Assembly: GCA_027450065.1 (NCBI GenBank)
Contig: DAIDKK010000001.1
Span: forward strand, 13,438-77,437
Origin: Candidatus Saccharimonadota bacterium
GTDB taxonomy: Bacteria; Patescibacteriota; Saccharimonadia; Saccharimonadales; UBA4665
Length of the DNA stretch: 64,000 bases
Reading direction: 5' to 3'
The position numbers were made by a program, and so were the translations under genes. Positions within the stretch are counted from its first letter, which is position 1; each line of letters starts with the position of its first letter. This document shows, in pieces, positions 1 through 51,616 of this stretch. The notes beneath the pieces were generated by a model. It saw only the letters and a program-made list of their open reading frames with translations, was not told the DNA's origin and made no database searches.

Positions 1-1992
1 TCGACCAGCGATAATAAAACGGGCTGGACATGGGGGAGTAATGTTGCCTGGTTCTGCTATTCAGACAATCCATCGCCCTTGGCTTCCTTTGATGGCGCTA
101 ACTGTTCGACCGCTTGGGGTTGGGTGTTTGACCCAAGCAACTCGGGCTTATCGGTACGTGCCGACCTTCAGGTAGACGGGAATACTAAGATATGGGCAAA
201 CACCAGCACATACAGAGGTGATGTCAACGCCGCGTATGGCATTGGTGGTGTCCATGGTTTTAGCTACGACATATCGGGTTGGGTTAATGATGGTAGTGCA
301 CATACGATCAGTGTCTTTACGTATGACATAGATAGTTCCGGCAATATTACGAGGGGGCCTATCCTCATAGGCAGCAGGGTAGTTGGACCGTGCGATCCTG
401 CGCCACAAACCTATTTCGATGCAGCTAGTTGTTCGACGGCGTCGGGTTGGGCGTTCGATCGAAGTAATACAGGCGTGTCGATACCAGCCCACCTTCAAGT
501 AGACGGGAATACTAAGATATGGGGAACCGCAAATACCTCAAGACCTGATGTCAATGCAGCGTTTGGTATAGGTGGTAACCATGGTTTTAGCCTTGATATA
601 TCGAGCTTTGTATCAGACGGTGCGGTGCATACGATAAGTGTCTATACGTATAATATTAATAGCGCCGGTACAGTAACAGGAGGGCCTATCCTCATAGGCA
701 GCAAGACGGTTGGACCGTGTTATAGCTATACACTTACTCCTTCTGTATCTTCTCCGGCGGGGGCATATATTGAGGCGGGTGATGCACTCAATTTCCAGTA
801 CCAGGTTAAAAATTCCGGTCCTACTGCAAGTCTGGTCGTAGCGGATGCCATCAAGCAGTATGTGGTTCCGGTAGGGCAGAGCTTGAACACCTACACAATG
901 CAGGATAATATTACAGCCAATTGCCCAAATGCCTTTAGTACGACATTATGTGCAACGAGCTGGCAATTGCCGCCTCGTTCATTTGGAGTCGGTACTACAT
1001 CTGTAGATGCAACAGGTTCATCACCACCGTACACGCCAACGAGTACTGCAGGATTACCGATTGGGACAAGCATTTGTCAAATTTTGGCGCTTGACCCCGC
1101 GAGCCAGGATCCGTATGGCAATATCGTACATGGTCGCTGGTCTGCACCTTTCTGTGTGCGGATTGTGGCCAAGCCATACTTTACCGTTACGGGCGGCGAC
1201 ATTTCCTCGGATGGGAATATTACTTCTTGGAATGCCGATAATACTGGTGGGGCAGGTTATGCGGGCGCAGGCAGCCAGCTGGCTGCGCTTGCGACGGGCA
1301 ACATTACAAGCTTTGTGACTGGTACTGGCATGAGTGGCAACCCCTCTAGCCTCGCTTTTGCTAATACTACCGCAGCTGGTACGAAGTATGGCGGTGGCTA
1401 CACGGAAACGATGCCGACGCCCGTTATCTCGACTGCCGGAGCTACGGTACTGACCACGAGCACACCCTCTTTGTCATCTCTAAACGGTGTTTATACGCGC
1501 TCGGGAGATCTTACGCTCTGGGATCCCACACCTGCCGGCAAGAGCGTTACTATTGTGATGACCTCAGGGAATCTATACATTAGCAACAACATCTCTTATT
1601 CCTACGGAAGTCTGGCGCAGATACCACGGCTGACGGTCATTGTCCAGAACGGCAATATCTACGTCAATAACAATGTTAGCGAAATTCACGGTGTGTTTTA
1701 TGTTGGTGGAGCTGGGCAGGGTAACTTCTATAGCTGTGCCACGGGAATTGGGGCACCAAGTACTGATTACGACACCTGTAACCATCAATTAACTGTTTAT
1801 GGCGCGGTGACCGCTAATAAGCTGGTACTCAGTCGTAGCTACGGATCCGTCCATGCGACAACTGGTACCCCGGCAGCAGCGGCCGAGAACTTCTTTTACA
1901 GCCCCGAAGTTTGGCTTGCGCCCGCTACCTCTACAAGTGGCGGTACTGACACTGTGTATAACTCGTACGTTAGTTTGCCGCCGATACTGTAG
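1..1992 (+). CDS. Secreted/surface repeat protein, 5'-truncated by the window edge
   Basis: Frame 1 is open from nt 1 into ORF 79-1992. It has two tandem ~105-aa repeats (FDxxxCSTAxGWxFD..LQVDGNTKIW..HGF..HTISVxTY..GPILIG..VGPC) and a Ser/Thr/Gly-rich C-terminal half. No enzyme motif was recognised. Confidence 0.6.
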   Translation, partial: STSDNKTGWTWGSNVAWFCYSDNPSPLASFDGANCSTAWGWVFDPSNSGLSVRADLQVDGNTKIWANTSTYRGDVNAAYGIGGVHGFSYDISGWVNDGSAHTISVFTYDIDSSGNITRGPILIGSRVVGPCDPAPQTYFDAASCSTASGWAFDRSNTGVSIPAHLQVDGNTKIWGTANTSRPDVNAAFGIGGNHGFSLDISSFVSDGAVHTISVYTYNINSAGTVTGGPILIGSKTVGPCYSYTLTPSVSSPAGAYIEAGDALNFQYQVKNSGPTASLVVADAIKQYVVPVGQSLNTYTMQDNITANCPNAFSTTLCATSWQLPPRSFGVGTTSVDATGSSPPYTPTSTAGLPIGTSICQILALDPASQDPYGNIVHGRWSAPFCVRIVAKPYFTVTGGDISSDGNITSWNADNTGGAGYAGAGSQLAALATGNITSFVTGTGMSGNPSSLAFANTTAAGTKYGGGYTETMPTPVISTAGATVLTTSTPSLSSLNGVYTRSGDLTLWDPTPAGKSVTIVMTSGNLYISNNISYSYGSLAQIPRLTVIVQNGNIYVNNNVSEIHGVFYVGGAGQGNFYSCATGIGAPSTDYDTCNHQLTVYGAVTANKLVLSRSYGSVHATTGTPAAAAENFFYSPEVWLAPATSTSGGTDTVYNSYVSLPPIL

Positions 1993-2079
1993 GTCTATGA
2001 TGATTCAATACCCATATCGCCGGAAAAAAGAAAATACCCTTGCGGTGATGTATAACGCTCATGCTATAATCGAGACAAT

Positions 2080-3120
2080 ATGAGTATATTGAGTGGGGTA
2101 TCATCGTTCTTCGGTCTCGACATTGGTACTACCGGTATTCGTGTTGTTGAGCTCCGTGGTTCTGGGCCAACTCGAAGTCTCGTCAAGTACGCCTACGTGC
2201 CCGTGGAGGTTAAATTAGCTCAAAGCGATAGTCGGGCGGATCAGCAGAAACTTGCCCAGATTCTCTCTAACCTTGTCAACGAAGCCAAGTTATCAACCAA
2301 AAATGTTGCAGTCGGGCTACCAAGTAGCCGGGTATTCACGACGGTTGTCGATTTTGATCGTATTCCTCAGAACGAACTTGGTAAGGCACTCCTGTATCAA
2401 GCAGACTCACTTATCCCAACCCCACCGGCCGAGAGTAAGATAGACTGGGCTGTTATCGGCGACTCACCGAAGGACAAAACGAAACTTGAGGTACTCCTCA
2501 GTAGTGTCGCAAATAGCTTCGTGGAATCTCGTCTCGATATGATTGAATCAATCGGTCTGAATGTCGTTGCCTTTGAGCCCGATAGCCTTGCGCTTGCGCG
2601 GGCCCTTGTGCCAGCAGGGACGGTAGCACCACAGCTCCTGATAGATATTGGTCAGCTCAGCAGCGACATTGTTATTACGATGCAAGAGGCACCTCATCTG
2701 ACGCGTTCTATCCCGACTGGCGCAGAAGCCGTTGTTCGTTCCGCCATGCAGAATCTGAATATAGACGAGAAGCAGGCTCGACAGTTTGTTTACAAGTTTG
2801 GTGTCAGTAAGGATAAGCTCGAGGGACAGGTCTTCCAGGCTATTATAGGCACCGTTGATTTGCTTGTGAGTGAAATAGACAAGACAATTAAGTTCTTCCA
2901 GACTCGTTACCCAGATCAGCCCATTGAGCGCATGATTGTCACGGGGGGCGCCTCGACTATACCAGAATTTCCGCTATATCTTGCGAATAAATTTGGTGTG
3001 AATGTTGAGATTGGGAACGCCTGGCGAAATGTTGCGTTTGCCTCGGATCGTCAAAACGAGCTGCTTGCGGTATCTAACCAATTTGGTGTCGCCGTTGGTT
3101 TGGCGGAGAGGGATGAGTAA
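2080..3120 (+). CDS. pilM: Type IV pilus assembly protein PilM (actin-like ATPase fold)
   Basis: N-terminal FFGLDIGTTGIRVVEL motif, 346 aa, first gene of a pilMNO-pilBTC cluster. Confidence 0.85.
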   Translation: MSILSGVSSFFGLDIGTTGIRVVELRGSGPTRSLVKYAYVPVEVKLAQSDSRADQQKLAQILSNLVNEAKLSTKNVAVGLPSSRVFTTVVDFDRIPQNELGKALLYQADSLIPTPPAESKIDWAVIGDSPKDKTKLEVLLSSVANSFVESRLDMIESIGLNVVAFEPDSLALARALVPAGTVAPQLLIDIGQLSSDIVITMQEAPHLTRSIPTGAEAVVRSAMQNLNIDEKQARQFVYKFGVSKDKLEGQVFQAIIGTVDLLVSEIDKTIKFFQTRYPDQPIERMIVTGGASTIPEFPLYLANKFGVNVEIGNAWRNVAFASDRQNELLAVSNQFGVAVGLAERDE

Positions 3121-3770
3121 TGGTTCAGTTTAACCTCTTGCCGAATATTAAGCTTGAGTATGTCAAAGCACGACGCACAAAGTACTTGGTCACGTTCATA
3201 TCGATTGTAGTAGGTGGGGTAGCTATACTGGTGTTTGCTGTGTCTCTATTTGTGGTTGACGTGGCGCAAAAGAAAAGCTTAAGTGATCTGAATACAGATA
3301 TTGGAAAGTACAGCAAACAGTTGCGGGGTACGAAGGATCTCAGCGAAATATTGACCGTACAAAACCAGCTCAACACACTTACCGCCCTTCACGACGGGAA
3401 ACCAGCAGCAAGTCGGTTATTTGACTATATCACCCAGTTGACACCTGCACAGGCAAGCCTCAATAAATTAACAGTTGATTTTACGGGAAATACGATGTCA
3501 ATTGGTGGGACGGCCCCTTCACTAGATACCGTGAGCTTATACACCGACACCCTTAAAGCAACTCACTACACGACCGACAAAAACACCAATCAAACGGCTG
3601 CCTTTAGTAATGTCGTTTTGACCAACTTCGCGCGAGATGATAAGGGCGCAACTTTTACGATTACCCTCAGCTTTGACCCAGTAATCTTCCAGGGCACAAG
3701 TGCTGTAACGCTTATCGTACCAAGTACGGCATCTGCCGATCAAACAAATGTATTTCAGGCGGGGAAGTAG
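3120..3770 (+). CDS. pilN: Type IV pilus assembly protein PilN-like
   Basis: N-terminal FNLLPNIK (NLLP motif) followed by a single TM helix. TAATG overlap with pilM. Confidence 0.7.
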   Translation: MVQFNLLPNIKLEYVKARRTKYLVTFISIVVGGVAILVFAVSLFVVDVAQKKSLSDLNTDIGKYSKQLRGTKDLSEILTVQNQLNTLTALHDGKPAASRLFDYITQLTPAQASLNKLTVDFTGNTMSIGGTAPSLDTVSLYTDTLKATHYTTDKNTNQTAAFSNVVLTNFARDDKGATFTITLSFDPVIFQGTSAVTLIVPSTASADQTNVFQAGK

Positions 3771-7604: not shown

Positions 7605-8822
7605 ATGCTTACATATACCTATACCGCTCGCAATCCCCAAACAGGTAAGATTGTGAAATCAATGGTGGAGGCAGAGAGTGAAGCCGCCGCCGCCAGATTA
7701 ATTAGTAATGAGAACCTCGTGGCCACGGATATTAGACTCCAATCCGAAAGACTGAGCATACTTGGAGGTAAGAGCAAGGTGAAGGCCAAGGACCGAGTCT
7801 TGTTTAGTCGACAGCTCAGTACGCTTATAAATGCCGGGCTACCCCTCTTGCAGGCGTTGCGTAGTGTTAACCAGCAGGCCACCAGTAAGCCGCTGAAGAT
7901 TGTCCTGAGTAAGATAATTGGAGATATTGAAGCGGGAAGTACACTCGCGACGGCAATGGGTCGTCATCCGAAGGTTTTTAACCAAGTCTATCTGAGCTTA
8001 ATAGCAGCCGGAGAGTCATCCGGTACACTTGATGCGGCACTGGATCGTCTGGCCGTTCAGCAGGAGAAAGAAGCCGACCTCAATAGCAAAATTCGCGGTG
8101 CCATGATTTATCCTATGGTTGTGCTGCTCGTTATGACGGCTGTCGTAGGTTTTATGGTGGTCAAAGTACTTCCACAGGTCAAGAATATATATGATGGCCT
8201 ACAGAATGCTAGCCTACCACTCATCACTCGCATAATGTTATCTATCTCCGATTTCACCATTCACTTCTGGTGGGTTGTACTGCTGGCTGTGGCGGTCCTG
8301 GCATTCTTTACGACTCGATGGGCTCGAACTGGGCCAGGCAAAGAGGTAATTGATACTCTTAAGATGAAGGCATGGCCAATTGGCCCATTATTCATGAAAG
8401 TATATATGGCAAGGTTTGCTCGAACAGGTACGACGTTGGTAGCGAGTGGAGTCCCCTTATTGCAGATGCTGAGTATTACCGGGCAAGCTGTTAATAATAT
8501 TCATATCCAGCGCGCTATATCGAAGGCAGCCGAAAAGGTTAAGGGCGGAAAAAGCCTAGCCGACAGTATCGAGCACGACCCGCATTTTTTACCACTTGTA
8601 CCTAATATGGTGCGAATCGGTGAACAATCAGGCGCCATTGAGCAGATGATGTCAAAGCTCGCCGATTACTACGAGAAAGAGGTTGATACGGAAGTCGATA
8701 ACATCTCCTCGATTATTGAACCTGTTATGATGGTGCTGCTCGGTATTGTTGCGTTCATTATTGTCGCGGCCGTGCTGCTGCCAATATATGGTCTCGCAGG
8801 GCAGTCAGGCTTTGGGGGTTAG
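7605..8822 (+). CDS. pilC: Type IV pilus platform protein PilC (GspF family)
   Basis: 405 aa with a duplicated GspF-type domain and 3 TM segments. Directly follows pilT. Confidence 0.9.
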   Translation: MLTYTYTARNPQTGKIVKSMVEAESEAAAARLISNENLVATDIRLQSERLSILGGKSKVKAKDRVLFSRQLSTLINAGLPLLQALRSVNQQATSKPLKIVLSKIIGDIEAGSTLATAMGRHPKVFNQVYLSLIAAGESSGTLDAALDRLAVQQEKEADLNSKIRGAMIYPMVVLLVMTAVVGFMVVKVLPQVKNIYDGLQNASLPLITRIMLSISDFTIHFWWVVLLAVAVLAFFTTRWARTGPGKEVIDTLKMKAWPIGPLFMKVYMARFARTGTTLVASGVPLLQMLSITGQAVNNIHIQRAISKAAEKVKGGKSLADSIEHDPHFLPLVPNMVRIGEQSGAIEQMMSKLADYYEKEVDTEVDNISSIIEPVMMVLLGIVAFIIVAAVLLPIYGLAGQSGFGG

Positions 8823-42243: not shown

Positions 42244-42340
42244 TTGCTAGATAAGTTATCTAGCGTGAATTGTTTTAGAAATTTCGAATCATAGATTCAA
42301 AAAGTAAGTCAGTTTTATACTGGCGCTAAGACAAATTCTT

Positions 42341-43931
<1,591 letters not shown>

Positions 43932-44060
43932 AGGGAGAAACTAGCATCAGAGCGGAGCAATCCTTCTGAGAGCTAGGTCGATTTCGATAAGTTGTAAATC
44001 AGTACTGACAACTTATGTATCCATCTTCGGATGGACGAGACATTCAGTTTCTGAACCTTT

Positions 44061-44094
44061 GTGAACTTGACGTTGATTGCACTATTCAGTTTTT
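44061..44094 (+). other. 3' arm of the 16S processing stem
   Basis: Complement of 42210-42243. Confidence 0.75.
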
Positions 44095-44112
44095 AAGACA
44101 GAACGATAAAAA

Positions 44113-44147
44113 AGGAGCCCAATTTTGCGAGAGGGCTTCTTTTTTTA
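44113..44147 (+). terminator. Intrinsic terminator directly after the 16S unit
   Basis: ggagccc..gggcttc hairpin followed by T7. Confidence 0.6.
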
Positions 44148-44253
44148 TGCAAAAAATTAGCGCCTTCAACTCCGTTGGTGTACTGTTGAAAACAGTTGAA
44201 AAGTAGTATACTTAACTTGTCTTTTTAAACAATAAAAAATATCAAATCAAAAA

Positions 44254-46023
44254 ATGGCTATACCAAAATGGCAGCAAAACGTGCCAAGTAATCGCGTAAT
44301 ATTTCCGATGCGTTATTCAGTATTGCGCCGAGCTGGCGCGGTTATATTTGTGGTGGCATGCATCCTCGGTAATAGCGTGAATATATCTGGAGTGGTTGCG
44401 AGTGGTATCCAGCCGGAACCAATTACCCAGCATGCTTCACGCAATGCGTGTGGGCAGGTTTCGTCGAATCGGGCTCGCTGTCTCTCGACTATTTCAACGG
44501 AGCGAGTGGCGGATCCTATCACGGCCAGTCCGAACACGAGTGGGTTCTATGGTCCAACCGAATTTCATACTGCCTACCAGCTTCCTTGTACTCCTGGGGG
44601 TGTGGTGCAGGCGGTCTGTGCGACGCCGTCAACCTATGGCCCAGAGACAATTGCCATCGTGGATGCGGGTGGCTATGCGAGTACGAGTGGGACACTAGAG
44701 GCAGATCTACAGACGTATACGACTCATTATGGTCTGCCAGCGTGTACGGCAGCAAATGGTTGCCTGACAATTGTCAATCAAACTGGCGCCCCATCACCAT
44801 TGCCCGCAAATGTGAGCAGTGGTTGGAGCAATGAAATTGCCCTTGACGTTCAAGTTGCTCACACCATATGCCAGACCTGTAAGATAGTATTAGTTGAAGC
44901 AAATGATGACACGCTGACAAATCTAGTAGCAGCAGAAGACGCGGCGGCAACTTTTGCTCCCGTGGCAATATCAAACAGCTGGGGGGCAACAACCGATGTC
45001 AGTGCTTACGACAGCCACTTTACGCGTACTGGTGTGGCTGTGGTGGCTGCGACTGGTGATAACGGCACGAATAACAATGGCCAAAGTTGGCCGGCAGATA
45101 TACCGGCAGTTATTGCTGTGTCAGGTAGCACATTACGGCTGAACACGAACAATACTTGGGCAAGTGAAACATTGTGGTCTGGTTCGGGCGGTGGCTGCAG
45201 TACTTCGTACACTGCTCCAGCATGGCAGACATCGAGATCAGACTGGGTCACAAATGGCTGCAGTAATGGTGGCCGGGCTTTTGGAGACGTGGCGGCTGAC
45301 GGTGACCCGAATACCGGTGCAGCCGTATATGTTGATTCTGGATGGTATATGGTGGGAGGAACTTCGCTGGCCTCACCACTCATAGCGGCGATGTATGCGC
45401 TTCAGGGTGCTATGCCAGCCGGAACAAGCGCGGTAAAGACCTTGTACCAAAATAGCTCACAAACAGCCTTTCACGACATCACATCTGGTAGTGATTGCGT
45501 AACGAGTGGCCAGTTGGATTGTACAGCCAGTGCGGGGTTTGATGTCCCCACTGGGCTGGGGGCTCCTACTGGACTAAGCGCGTTTGTGGCTGATCCTACG
45601 CCGCCGTATAACCTTATGGCCAGCCACATAAACCAAACGCAACTTAATATCTCTTGGGCCACTGCGTCTGCCCTCAACGGTATATCGAATTACCAGATAT
45701 ATCGTGATGGTTCACTAACCAGCACAAGTACAGCGAATGGCTTTAGTGACACGGGCCTCACCCCCAATAGCTATTATACGTACTACCTTAAGACGGTTGA
45801 TAATAAGGGGGGTGTCTCGTCGCCATCAGAGACGCTTGCGGCCGATACGTTCTTGCTGCCTGATATCAATCGTGATGGGCACATCAATCTACTGGATTTC
45901 AGCTTGCTCGCAAGCAAATACGGCCAAACAGGAGGTTCGCTAGGACGAAGTGACATTAACGGTGATGGGGTAGTCAATCTACTGGATTTCAGCTTGCTCG
46001 CAAGCAAGTACGGCACAGAGTAG
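44254..46023 (+). CDS. Secreted S53 (sedolisin/kumamolisin-like) serine peptidase with an FN3-like domain and a C-terminal two-segment dockerin
   Basis: N-terminal TM/signal segment, a pro-domain-like region, WSGSGGGCS and GGTSLASPLIAAMYAL (catalytic Ser). The C-terminus has DINRDGHINLLDFSLLASKYG and DINGDGVVNLLDFSLLASKYG. Confidence 0.75.
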   Translation: MAIPKWQQNVPSNRVIFPMRYSVLRRAGAVIFVVACILGNSVNISGVVASGIQPEPITQHASRNACGQVSSNRARCLSTISTERVADPITASPNTSGFYGPTEFHTAYQLPCTPGGVVQAVCATPSTYGPETIAIVDAGGYASTSGTLEADLQTYTTHYGLPACTAANGCLTIVNQTGAPSPLPANVSSGWSNEIALDVQVAHTICQTCKIVLVEANDDTLTNLVAAEDAAATFAPVAISNSWGATTDVSAYDSHFTRTGVAVVAATGDNGTNNNGQSWPADIPAVIAVSGSTLRLNTNNTWASETLWSGSGGGCSTSYTAPAWQTSRSDWVTNGCSNGGRAFGDVAADGDPNTGAAVYVDSGWYMVGGTSLASPLIAAMYALQGAMPAGTSAVKTLYQNSSQTAFHDITSGSDCVTSGQLDCTASAGFDVPTGLGAPTGLSAFVADPTPPYNLMASHINQTQLNISWATASALNGISNYQIYRDGSLTSTSTANGFSDTGLTPNSYYTYYLKTVDNKGGVSSPSETLAADTFLLPDINRDGHINLLDFSLLASKYGQTGGSLGRSDINGDGVVNLLDFSLLASKYGTE

Positions 46024-46038
46024 AAAGGGTGACACAGG

Positions 46039-47337
46039 TTAACTGCTGGAGGGTACCTGCTTACGTGGTGCCAGGAGATGACGAACCTTTGTAGCGTAGC
46101 TAGGGTTGAGGAAGTATAGAGCTGCGAAACCAATCACTAACACTGCAGCAGTACTCATGAATATCGTAGTACTGTGCTTTGCGGAAACGGCAACAGGAAA
46201 TATGACTGCGATGTTCTGCGTGGCCGGTATTACGCTACCCGCAACAGGAGTACTGTCGACGTACGCAACGGCGCTGTACGTCTGATTACCATCGGTGTAG
46301 GTCAGGTGATGTTCACCTGGTGTAACGTTTGTAAAGGTGGCAACACCATTTCCATCTGTCTTCACTGTCTGCACCACTGAATGTAACGAGACTTTCTGAT
46401 GGATGAGCGGCTGATTATTTTTGCCGAGTACAGTTACGCTGACAGTGTAGCCATTCGTCATAAAGTGCTGAACGCTCATTTTAGTCTGCGTTCCATCAGT
46501 AGCTTCGGCAACCACTTGATAATAATACGTCGTTCCTGGCGTGAGAGGTGTCTGGTTGCCGAGCTTAAGACTGGCGGTCATGGTTTGGCTCGCTACGTTC
46601 GTACGGACAGTAAGACTATCTGGGGCGGTACCATACAGGGCGTATATATTGAGGTTTTGATCACTCCTAACGCTAAGTGTGGCAAAGCTATACTCTGGAC
46701 TAATTTTTGTCATGAGGTGAGGAGCCACTAGGGGAGATATAGGTACAGCTGGCGTAGTCGGGGGGGTAGGAGTAGCTATGGCGGCAGTAGATTTTATCGA
46801 AGTGCCACTTGTAGGAGATTTAGCACTTATGACTGGCGTTGGTGTAGGCGCAGGAGCCGGTGGGCTTGTGAAGCCGATTGAGGCATTTGAAATTGAGGGG
46901 TTTGTATAGCTACCACTACTGGTTGCGTTAGCATTACTTATAGCTAGCGTTGCTGTTCCGCTTGGCACAAGCGCCGTTACACTGAAGGTTGCAATCAATG
47001 AATCAGAGCTGACGCCTCCCGAAAGATTCCCGAGTGCAACGGTGAAGCCGCTTCCGGAGACCGTTTTTTGAAGCTGGGCGGAAAAAGGTGATGCCGACGT
47101 GTCCACGCTGTTTAGCCTGAGTAGCGACGAGTCAAGGCTTACAGTTGCTTGTACACCATCAACGGTTGCACCAGGATTAATGCGCAGAGAAAGAGTCTCA
47201 GAATTACCATCTTGCAGGCTACTTGCGCCAGGCGAGATATAAATAACCCCACTTCCCGCGAAGGCAAGCTGAGTAGTAAGGGGCGTCAGGAGAGTGCCTA
47301 CGAGGAGAGCACTAAGAAGCTTTTGTTTAATATTCAT
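46039..47337 (-). CDS. Cell-surface protein: signal peptide, cohesin-like domain, Pro/Thr linker, FN3-like and CarboxypepD_reg-like domains, C-terminal TM anchor
   Basis: The N-terminus (MNIKQKLLSALLVGTLLTPLTTQLAFA) is followed by a cohesin-like beta-sandwich pattern (LSLRINPGATVDGVQATVSLDSSLLRLNSVD...). The linker is PPAPAPTPTP and the C-terminal TM helix is TTIFMSTAAVLVIGFAALYFL. Confidence 0.5.
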   Translation of the reverse strand: MNIKQKLLSALLVGTLLTPLTTQLAFAGSGVIYISPGASSLQDGNSETLSLRINPGATVDGVQATVSLDSSLLRLNSVDTSASPFSAQLQKTVSGSGFTVALGNLSGGVSSDSLIATFSVTALVPSGTATLAISNANATSSGSYTNPSISNASIGFTSPPAPAPTPTPVISAKSPTSGTSIKSTAAIATPTPPTTPAVPISPLVAPHLMTKISPEYSFATLSVRSDQNLNIYALYGTAPDSLTVRTNVASQTMTASLKLGNQTPLTPGTTYYYQVVAEATDGTQTKMSVQHFMTNGYTVSVTVLGKNNQPLIHQKVSLHSVVQTVKTDGNGVATFTNVTPGEHHLTYTDGNQTYSAVAYVDSTPVAGSVIPATQNIAVIFPVAVSAKHSTTIFMSTAAVLVIGFAALYFLNPSYATKVRHLLAPRKQVPSSS

Positions 47338-47436
47338 TATTTATTTTTTACCTACTACTAGAGTATAAACACAAGGCATTCTCTTTGCAACGAGGTGCAA
47401 TTAATCTGTCAGTTACGGACGTCTGTCTATTAACTG

Positions 47437-47465
47437 TTGAGTTTTATATGTTTTTTCGCTAGAAT
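47437..47465 (+). promoter_or_regulatory. Promoter TTGAGT-17-TAGAAT ahead of tRNA-Ala/tRNA-Ile
   Basis: Hexamers with 17-nt spacing, 20 nt upstream of tRNA-Ala. Confidence 0.5.
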
Positions 47466-47485
47466 ACACCGGTAGTTCACAGCAA

Positions 47486-47562
47486 GGGGACATAGCTCAG
47501 TTGGCTAGAGCACCTGCTTTGCAAGCAGGGGGTCCGGGGTTCGAGTCCCCGTGTCTCCACCA
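47486..47562 (+). tRNA. tRNA-Ala (TGC)
   Basis: G3-U70 pair (ggggaca/tgtctcc), anticodon stem cctgc/gcagg with loop ttTGCaa, encoded CCA. Confidence 0.9.
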
Positions 47563-47612
47563 TATGGGGGCGCAGTGCCTAAAGCGCAGCGTCTCCACCA
47601 TTTACAATTTAG

Positions 47613-47739
47613 GGGCGATTAGCTCAGCTGGCGCGGTTTACCGCAAAGATATGTAAGAGCGCACAGCGCTTTAATCAGCTGAACGTCACTAAACCGAGAA
47701 CTGCGGTATCAGACTGCGGTTCAAAACCACATACGTTGT
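47613..47739 (+). pseudogene. Degenerate tRNA-Ile fragment(s)
   Basis: 47613-47631 (gggcgattagctcagctgg) is identical to the first 19 nt of tRNA-Ile. Scattered matches follow (agagcgc, cgtcact, ggttcaaaacc), but no cloverleaf can be folded. Confidence 0.55.
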
Positions 47740-47816
47740 GGGCGATTAGCTCAGCTGGTTAGAGCGCGTCACTGATAATGACGAGGTCGGAGGTTCGAGT
47801 CCCTCATCGCCCACCA
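47740..47816 (+). tRNA. tRNA-Ile (GAT)
   Basis: Acceptor gggcgat/atcgccc, anticodon stem cgtca/tgacg with loop ctGATaa, T-loop ttcgagt, encoded CCA. Confidence 0.9.

Positions 47817-48270: not shown

Positions 48271-51616
<3,346 letters not shown>

Follow-up and report, generated by a model that had tools for sequence, protein, structure and literature searches.

A dockerin-tagged sedolisin and a membrane-anchored cohesin protein encoded as a convergent pair in the 16S-23S rRNA spacer of a Saccharimonadia bacterium

Do two protein-coding genes that face each other in the spacer separating 16S from 23S rRNA in a Candidatus Saccharimonadota bacterium encode parts of one system, and what would that system do? 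The question was raised by a 64,000-nt stretch of assembly GCA_027450065.1 (contig DAIDKK010000001.1, positions 13,438 to 77,437), referred to here as the window. The open reading frames (ORFs) at 44254-46023 on the plus strand and 46039-47337 on the minus strand are convergent, with their stop codons 15 nt apart. The first encodes an S53 peptidase (sedolisin) that ends in a dockerin, and the second a membrane anchor that carries a cohesin. We consider it probable that the gene pair is a minimal non-cellulosomal cohesin-dockerin display system, built 1:1, in which the protease is held at the cell envelope. What the sequences show is which domains the proteins contain, that their catalytic and Ca-loop residues are intact, the signals of their topology and a linkage of the genes that is conserved; the binding of cohesin to dockerin, the cleavage of the N-terminal helix of the protease, its pH optimum, its substrate and its physiological role are what we infer. 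The features of the pair, in window positions, are as follows.

44159..47483, no strand: two-gene module, 3325 nt, its limits set by a co-occurring variant without the module
44254..46023, plus strand: gene for the S53 (sedolisin)-fibronectin type III (fn3)-dockerin protein, 589 amino acids (aa); ORF and homologues
44314..44403, plus strand: hydrophobic N-terminal segment, aa 21-50; Kyte-Doolittle plot and helix 21-39 in the AlphaFold2 (AF2) model
44539..45585, plus strand: sedolisin/S53 catalytic domain (E194, D198, D269, S371); phmmer, Foldseek and invariant residues
45592..45837, plus strand: fn3 spacer domain; Pfam fn3 and Foldseek
45844..46020, plus strand: type I dockerin of two 22-residue segments, each a Ca-loop and a helix (D537-G557, D567-G587); Pfam Dockerin_1 and conserved loops
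45861..45924, plus strand: first copy of a 64-nt direct DNA repeat (dockerin segment 1); repeat search
45951..46014, plus strand: second copy of the 64-nt repeat (dockerin segment 2); repeat search and codon identity
46039..47337, minus strand: gene encoding the anchor with its cohesin, 432 aa; ORF
47257..47337, minus strand: signal peptide of the anchor, aa 1-27, ending LAFA/GSG; AF2 helix 2-21, 15-residue hydrophobic core, site by inspection
46867..47250, minus strand: cohesin domain, aa 30-157; Foldseek, and PF00963 matches in homologues
46717..46866, minus strand: flexible linker rich in Pro, Thr, Ala and Ser, aa 158-207; composition and low model confidence
46201..46716, minus strand: two immunoglobulin (Ig)-like stalk domains (aa 208-293, fn3/PAP_N-like; aa 297-379, CarboxypepD_reg-like); sub-threshold Pfam matches and AF2 strands
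46102..46173, minus strand: transmembrane helix near the C-terminus, aa 389-412, with a basic tail behind it on the cytoplasmic side; Kyte-Doolittle 2.27, AF2 helix 390-410

The plus-strand product had been called an S53-type peptidase in a first-pass annotation made from the letters alone, and this call was borne out. A phmmer search of PDB sequences matched residues 131-443 to kumamolisin-As (E 3e-23) and the protein to sedolisin (E 2e-11), and the motifs WSGSGGGCS and GGTSLASP are both present in the translation. The AF2 model, built on 40 homologues (predicted local distance difference test, pLDDT, 85; predicted template-modelling score, pTM, 0.75), was aligned by Foldseek to kumamolisin-As with a template-modelling score (TM-score) of 0.76, an E-value of 5e-17 and 28% identity. 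Residues E194, D198, D269 and S371 align with the Glu, Asp, oxyanion Asp and Ser of the sedolisins and are invariant in the 40 homologues; we take their counterparts in kumamolisin-As to be E78, D82, D164 and S278. Since Pfam gave no protease-family domain in this protein (Peptidase_S8, Pro-kuma_activ), the S53 assignment rests on the PDB sequence and fold matches. Nine Cys residues are invariant and three nearly so in the same 40 homologues, and these twelve fit an extracellular enzyme. The fn3 domain at residues 450-527 scored 27.4 bits in Pfam (cut-off 25) and superposed on the fn3 domain of chitinase A1 with a TM-score of 0.86. The protein P0042 is 99% identical to the window protein, and more than 100 homologues have the same S53-fn3-dockerin architecture. 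Sedolisins (MEROPS S53) are serine-carboxyl peptidases that are typically active in acid. The window sequence was found in four mine-drainage metagenomes (84-94% of sampled words), a habitat that fits an acid-active protease family.

The hydrophobic helix and the catalytic domain are only ~80 residues apart. Pro-kumamolisin (1t1e) is matched by phmmer from its residue 195 onward, and Foldseek aligned 428 columns of the model to that structure; a short prodomain remnant is possible on the model. The segment at 44404-44535 (aa ~51-94, extending up to ~130), ahead of the catalytic domain, is short, contains Cys and has a few predicted strands. In a further set of S53 paralogues (P0096, P0098, P0106-P0108, P0124-P0161) the dockerin is replaced by B_lectin (PF01453) or Big_7 (PF17957), which suggests that the Patescibacteria hold a family of differently targeted S53 surface proteases.

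The dockerin of the peptidase is the sole dockerin in the 64-kb window. Dockerin_1 (PF00404) matched residues 537-583 at 32.6 bits (cut-off 22.9), and the two near-identical C-terminal segments that had been quoted earlier, DINRDGHINLLD and DINGDGVVNLLD, are there as quoted, each an EF-hand-like loop followed by a helix (AF2 helices 546-553 and 576-583). In the two segments, DINRDGHINLLDFSLLASKYG and DINGDGVVNLLDFSLLASKYG, loop positions 1, 3, 5 and 12 are Asp or Asn. All 40 homologues have D537, N539, D548 and D578, and conservation of D541, D567, N569 and D571 among them is 90% or higher. A direct repeat of ~40 bp had been noticed in the DNA at this place; the repeat is real and is longer, 64 nt (45861-45924 and 45951-46014, 86% identity), the 40-bp coordinates being those of its near-identical core. 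At 13 of the 17 residues that are identical between the window's segments the codons are identical as well (4-11 in relatives), so the likeness of the segments in DNA goes beyond what protein constraint needs, and this suggests recent gene conversion within the gene. The conspicuous DNA repeat is thus the dockerin duplication itself, probably sharpened by such conversion.

The two dockerin helices also change together. Helix position 13 is F, L or V across 20 orthologues, with positions 15, 17 and 18 varying too. Two segments were recognised in 17 of these orthologues, and 16 of them have the same residue at position 13 in both helices. Internal symmetry of this kind is reportedly the pattern of type I dockerins with a dual binding mode, as described by Carvalho and colleagues for Clostridium thermocellum. 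As the helices are near-identical and change in parallel between orthologues, either of them may bind the cohesin. Some 20 pairs of cohesin and dockerin divide into two clades, and covariation between their residues is not separable from phylogeny.

For the minus-strand product the first-pass annotation had described a signal peptide, a cohesin-like beta-sandwich, a linker, two Ig-like domains and a transmembrane anchor, and this layout is present in the AF2 model built on 41 homologues (pLDDT 84). In order, the model has a helix at 2-21, a sandwich at 31-157 (pLDDT 87-97), a disordered linker, two more sandwiches (208-293, 297-379) and a last helix (390-410). The linker (~158-207) holds 14 Pro, 9 Thr, 8 Ala and 7 Ser among 50 residues, and its pLDDT falls below 50 at 172-191. 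The N-terminal domain, predicted as a nine-stranded jelly-roll beta-sandwich of the cohesin type, superposes on solved cohesins. Its Foldseek matches in the PDB include 6kgf_A, the CohA2 cohesin of Clostridium acetobutylicum bound to its dockerin (TM-score 0.77, root-mean-square deviation 2.5 Å, E 1.6e-8), 2xdh, a non-cellulosomal cohesin of Archaeoglobus fulgidus (TM-score 0.77), 5nrm_A, 1aoh and 3ul4. The list holds more than 25 cohesins besides 6kgf_A and 2xdh, among them those of Clostridium perfringens and of OlpA, OlpC and CipA of C. thermocellum; its top ten comprises eight chains that contain a cohesin and two of the pilin BcpA, and most of the entries below these are again cohesins. 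PF00963 (Cohesin) was matched by 16 of the 41 anchor homologues (best E 7.4e-10), and the five that were checked (P0007, P0012, P0010, P0038 and P0122) scored 27.8-39.6 bits over residues ~37-162 (cut-off 24.1).

The C-terminal half of the anchor gave sub-threshold Pfam matches to Pur_ac_phosph_N (E 8e-4) and CarboxypepD_reg (E 6e-5), and its last helix is strongly hydrophobic (Kyte-Doolittle 2.27) with a basic tail after it. Pfam gave no S-layer homology (SLH) match in the anchor, and the C-terminus is without LPXTG. By its model, then, the minus-strand product is predicted to be a type I membrane protein with a single cohesin at the distal end. The short family member P0040 consists of the signal peptide, cohesin, linker and transmembrane helix only, which marks these as the core of the anchor. 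The architecture is found end to end in 114 of the best 150 representative clusters (50% identity), at lengths of ~350-590 aa. Named homologues belong to Candidatus Saccharimonadia or Saccharimonadales and are annotated as 'cohesin domain-containing' or 'dockerin type I domain-containing'.

Whether the two genes form a pair can be judged from other genomes. A convergent S53-dockerin and anchor pair was found in 11 distinct Saccharimonadia loci with unrelated flanking genes, namely the window, L001, L002, L004, L006, L008, L010, L091, L093, L094 and L095, some of these loci having been ascertained through the cohesin gene itself. When the anchor was taken as the starting point, in a sample of ten contexts (the window, L001, L002 (= L003, L007), L004 (= L005), L006, L008, L009, L089, L090 and L091), an S53-fn3-dockerin gene was adjacent and convergent in seven; a scan of genome contigs with a single anchor protein gave 4 loci. 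In L009 and L090 the anchor adjoins a gene for a different secreted dockerin protein, which resembles a carbohydrate-binding module (CBM) protein with Ig or fn3 domains, bears a dockerin of like kind and has no protease. On L089, a contig of 5.9 kb, no dockerin was found beside the anchor gene. When the protease was the starting point, a convergent anchor was present in four of the six dockerin-bearing loci (L010, L093, L094 and L095), whereas no cohesin was found near the dockerin-less S53 paralogues at any of 23 loci, each with at least 2.5 kb of downstream sequence (hypergeometric p ~6e-4, calculated by hand).

Six relatives (P0121, P0122, P0123, P0129, P0136 and P0139) carry cohesin, S53 and dockerin in a single chain. 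Their cohesins match the hidden Markov model (HMM) of the anchor family at E 1e-10 to 1e-15, and P0122 passes both Pfam Cohesin and Dockerin_1. Adjacency that is conserved, cargo that is exchanged and domains that are fused each signal, independently and at the genomic level, that the two are linked physically or functionally, and they connect the cohesin with partners that bear dockerins in particular. For 16 anchor homologues the longest contig is also of the same size as that of an S53-dockerin homologue. The proposal of a two-component tether, made earlier from the window's letters, is thereby strengthened in part, by the cohesin fold, the 11 loci, the cargo exchange, the fusions and the lack of cohesin genes beside dockerin-less paralogues. 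The lack of any cohesin match in the anchor, which the first-pass annotation had named as counting against the proposal, did not come about: its N-terminal domain matches solved cohesins in structure, and homologues pass the Pfam cut-off.

Some smaller features of these loci may be added. The fusion proteins run from a transmembrane-like helix through cohesin, S53 and a Pro/Thr linker to the dockerin (for example L092, 6001-8382), and could, in principle, bind one another head to tail. The alternative cargo genes (L090, 6463-7413; L009, 6422-8011) encode an N-terminal, Cys-framed conserved domain (CTAP..YRIWTRM..IGNAP), then Ig or fn3 repeats and the dockerin. In L096 a dockerin-like fragment (8118-8180, minus strand, E 3e-5) lies just downstream of the S53-dockerin gene and may be the remnant of a decayed gene. 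In L001, a Saccharimonadia contig of 1.12 Mb, seven small genes of the T4SS_pilin family stand in a row at 809-3486, a few kb from the pair.

If the pair works as a display system, the anchor would be exported by its signal peptide and kept in the cytoplasmic membrane by its C-terminal helix, so that the single cohesin would be projected outward on the two Ig-like domains and the Pro/Thr linker, beyond the membrane and probably beyond the wall. The protease would be exported as well, and its Ca2+-binding type I dockerin would plug into the cohesin of the anchor. Docking would keep the protease at the outer face of the envelope rather than letting it diffuse off, and peptides freed at the surface could be taken up by the cell, which, in common with other Saccharimonadia, is probably reliant on amino acids from outside. 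Feeding by the protease on a host is speculation, and biofilm protein or surface proteins of the cell itself are candidate substrates as well.

Several observations weigh against this mechanism. The profile searches proposed in the first-pass annotation came out mixed: Dockerin_1 was matched and no protease-family domain was, and Cohesin, though matched in homologues, had no match in the window's minus-strand protein at E<=1. Searched against PDB sequences, this protein had no significant match, and the profile of the anchor family found no cohesin, with only Ig-like matches to the C-terminal domains; for this reason the cohesin assignment rests on the fold search and the Pfam matches in homologues. 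Together with an identity of only 8-17% to solved cohesins, these results would suit a generic beta-sandwich, such as a carbohydrate-binding or adhesin module, that has converged on the cohesin fold and does not bind dockerins. We regard this as very unlikely, given that eight of the ten best structural matches and most of the remaining list are cohesins, that the checked homologues exceed the gathering score for PF00963 in the homologous region, and that neighbourhoods and fusions link the domain to dockerins in particular.

Also on the negative side are L017 and L096, where a stretch of 6-10 kb around the S53-dockerin gene holds no gene for a cohesin; adjacency of the partner is thus not universal. 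The true partner of the dockerin could then lie elsewhere, as another cohesin, a component of the wall or S-layer, or a structure on a host cell, and the neighbouring gene would encode an independent adhesin that is adjacent through shared regulation or a shared surface function. This is in line with the essential dockerin-domain protein of a cultivated Saccharibacterium, for which no cohesin partner was reported (PMC10633639), and only 64 kb of the present genome is in view. However, the adjacency is kept across the 11 loci while the other neighbours differ, the anchor retains a dockerin-bearing neighbour even where the cargo has changed (L009, L090), and six relatives have fused cohesin and dockerin in one protein. 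A partner elsewhere thus appears unlikely.

The N-terminal segment of the protease is a further difficulty for the display mechanism. Over a 19-residue window within aa 21-50 the Kyte-Doolittle mean is 2.12, which passes the threshold for a transmembrane helix and is long enough for an uncleaved anchor; with such an anchor the dockerin would not be required for tethering. The helix could be either a long Sec signal peptide, with a site at VVA/SG that by inspection fits the -3/-1 rule, or an uncleaved signal anchor. In the second case the cohesin-dockerin contact would build or position a complex in cis, which might raise the catalytic domain up to the stalk's tip or form a lattice, and the fusions, which begin with a transmembrane-like helix followed by a cohesin, have a layout that permits chain formation. 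The VVA/SG site, the twelve conserved Cys residues, which point to a free extracellular enzyme, and the fact that the signal peptides of monoderm bacteria are often long speak the other way; none of these is decisive, and we give self-anchoring a low probability. The canonical sedolisin prodomain (Pro-kuma_activ), of ~190 aa, was not detected in the protease by Pfam or phmmer, which leaves its activity and maturation uncertain. Finally, neither gene was covered in three metatranscriptomes of the same study, where only the rRNA region gave matches; the organism is present at 5-9x in DNA, and this result is thus uninformative. On balance the display of the protease through cohesin and dockerin is still the reading that we prefer.

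Single-cohesin anchors are known from C. thermocellum, where OlpA and OlpC (3ul4, 4dh2) resemble the proposed display system in that one type I-like cohesin on a cell-bound protein takes up a dockerin-tagged enzyme, an arrangement that in the window is read from the genes. The window's cohesin model superposes on the OlpA and OlpC cohesins at TM-scores of 0.69-0.74, and its dockerin shares the duplicated Ca-loop and helix design with the dockerins that they bind. In contrast to OlpA and OlpC, the window anchor has a C-terminal transmembrane helix and an Ig-like stalk in place of SLH repeats, the cargo is a sedolisin peptidase and not a glycoside hydrolase, the host is a small-genome bacterium of the candidate phyla radiation (CPR), and the window shows no multi-cohesin scaffoldin, CBM or second dockerin gene. 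A cellulosome has a scaffoldin with a CBM and several cohesins, glycoside hydrolases that bear dockerins, and SLH repeats or a sortase signal for anchoring; none of these is seen in the window, so the system is not a cellulosome, and it would work like the single-cohesin anchors and the non-cellulosomal pairs.

Cohesin and dockerin modules outside cellulolytic organisms have long been known (survey of Peer et al. 2009, as relayed in PMC9012536). The non-cellulosomal modules of A. fulgidus (2xdh) and C. perfringens (2w1n, 2vo8, 2jh2) typically occur singly or a few per protein and are among the best structural matches of the window's cohesin, but they are not presented as a conserved cassette in which one gene encodes a membrane anchor and the other a protease: the A. 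fulgidus proteins hold cohesin and dockerin together, and the modules of the C. perfringens toxin complex join glycoside hydrolases. For Candidatus Stygibacter (Cloacimonadota) a cellulosome-like complex with dockerin-bearing S8/S53 and C25 peptidases was proposed from a metagenome-assembled genome (PMC8542988). There too a dockerin-tagged serine peptidase of S8/S53 type is inferred to be held outside the cell by cohesins; however, that complex is built on a scaffoldin of 3755 aa, which bears tandem cohesins as well as CBMs, and takes several kinds of cargo, and the window has one cohesin, one cargo, a transmembrane anchor and adjacent genes. The kumamolisin and sedolisin structures (1sio, 1gt9, 1t1e, 1ga1) share with the window protein the catalytic fold, the Ser-Glu-Asp triad and the oxyanion Asp, whereas the window protein, at ~28% identity, has no recognisable prodomain, has extra conserved Cys residues and bears the C-terminal fn3 and dockerin.

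Among the Saccharibacteria themselves, the essential, dockerin-bearing envelope protein SEML1_0315 of Southlakia epibionticum has been proposed to act at the interface with the host cell (PMC10633639). It is a protein of 927 aa with Ig-like domains and no protease, and the terms S53, sedolisin, cohesin and scaffoldin are absent from the tables of that paper; SEML1_0315 was ruled out as a homologue of either window gene and as an instance of the same system. In the literature searched on dockerins in Saccharibacteria, Patescibacteria or CPR, and on S53 peptidases in Saccharibacteria, this pair was not found described.

Saccharimonadia and other CPR bacteria have small genomes that lack most amino-acid biosynthesis, and how they take up nutrients and which proteins their envelopes present to the outside are open questions. 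A conserved, easily recognised module by which an acid protease would be fixed to the surface gives a concrete hypothesis that can be tested with two small recombinant domains, and the module is also a candidate surface marker for Saccharimonadia. Cohesin-dockerin biology would gain from it a minimal 1:1 system in which the anchor is transmembrane, the cargo is a protease, and exchange of cargo and fusions both occur in nature. A bolder view is conceivable and, taken as a whole, doubtful: the cohesin anchor would be a general socket throughout the Saccharimonadia with exchangeable cargos, mostly S53 proteases and elsewhere CBM-like proteins; the fusions would polymerise into a protease coat; the displayed acid protease would be a principal route by which these auxotrophic, ultra-small cells obtain amino acids, from hosts or from biofilm protein; and the 3.3-kb module would be gained and lost as a unit, even in an rRNA spacer, between co-occurring strains.

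The position of the pair between rRNA genes is the remaining part of the question. The features of this region outside the two genes are as follows.

42340..43929, plus strand: 16S rRNA gene, the left boundary of the spacer; Rfam SSU_rRNA_bacteria, 1459 bits, full model
44108..44145, plus strand: terminator-like hairpin and T-run after 16S, abutting the left edge of the module; RNA fold, function predicted
47486..47562, plus strand: tRNA-Ala(UGC), bordering the module on its right; ARAGORN and Rfam
47740..47816, plus strand: tRNA-Ile(GAU); ARAGORN and Rfam
48273..51616, plus strand: 23S rRNA gene, the right boundary of the spacer; Rfam LSU_rRNA_bacteria, 2552 bits
51860-51976, strand not stated: 5S rRNA gene, past 23S

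Both rRNA genes are complete and lie 4343 nt apart, with gyrB and gyrA directly upstream of 16S. The assembly is sound here, as contigs of four sequencing runs tile the region from 43910 through the tRNAs and the order is repeated in an independent genome. A gap of more than 1500 nt between 16S and 23S defines unlinked rRNA genes, a condition reported to be common in Patescibacteria (Brewer et al., 10.1101/705046), and by this criterion the window's rRNA genes are unlinked. The location that the first-pass annotation had called unusual is therefore real but was overstated: it is noteworthy, not exceptional, and its weight is lowered by being an instance of an already described condition.

The location is also specific to a lineage. 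In L002/L007, whose 16S is 93.7% identical, gyrB, gyrA, 16S, the S53 gene and the anchor gene follow in the same order, in a spacer that in L002 measures ~9.4 kb, contains five additional genes and has the tRNA pair inverted relative to the rRNA genes; no counterparts of these five genes were found in the window. In the rRNA scan, outside which L091 and L093-L095 fell, the pair was flanked by rRNA genes in this one other species only. Directly past 16S the window and L002 share a conserved stretch of ~220 nt, which ends in the hairpin and T-run. The hairpin at 44108-44145 has 13 bp, stands between an A-run and a T-run and folds at -16.6 kcal/mol (z -3.1), and L002 retains its stem and T-run with altered stem bases. 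It may act as a terminator that parts 16S from the rest of the 'operon'. Promoter-like sequences stand before 16S (TTGACT-17-TACAAT) and before 23S (TTGACC-17-TACAAT), and separate transcription of the two is plausible. The promoter scan gave 7 sites where 7.5 were expected, no enrichment over chance, and what it placed ahead of 16S, the tRNAs, 23S and the anchor gene is no more than suggestive.

The limits of the module were set by a variant from the mine-drainage runs X1 and X4, whose contigs match 43910-44158 at ~97%, resume at 47484 and omit exactly the two genes. The variant has a depth of 15-21, 2-3 times that of the window type (5-9), and a contig of X1 at depth 15.5 covers the gyrA-16S region at ~98%. 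These short Logan contigs suggest that a close relative without the module at this site occurs alongside the window type, as a presence/absence polymorphism. Because the more distant L002 has the module in this place, loss or relocation in the variant is more parsimonious. A foreign origin of the module was considered and set aside, its GC content (0.49-0.53) being no different from that of the flanks. No direct repeats flank it, and inverted ones are only weak (70-83% complementary).

Between the two tRNA genes, 11 nt from the 3' end of tRNA-Ala recur without a mismatch at 47591-47601, and 19 nt from the 5' end of tRNA-Ile do so at 47613-47631; both copies look like fragments left by a rearrangement. 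The usual order in bacterial spacers is Ile-Ala, and the window has the reverse, Ala then Ile. The rRNA genes themselves are longer than their models, the 23S match covering 3344 nt against 2925 positions and the 16S match 1590 nt against 1533, and contigs of other organisms skip ~42408-42549, 49887-50046, 50151-50359 and 50760-50935, which suggests insertions of the CPR type in both 16S and 23S.

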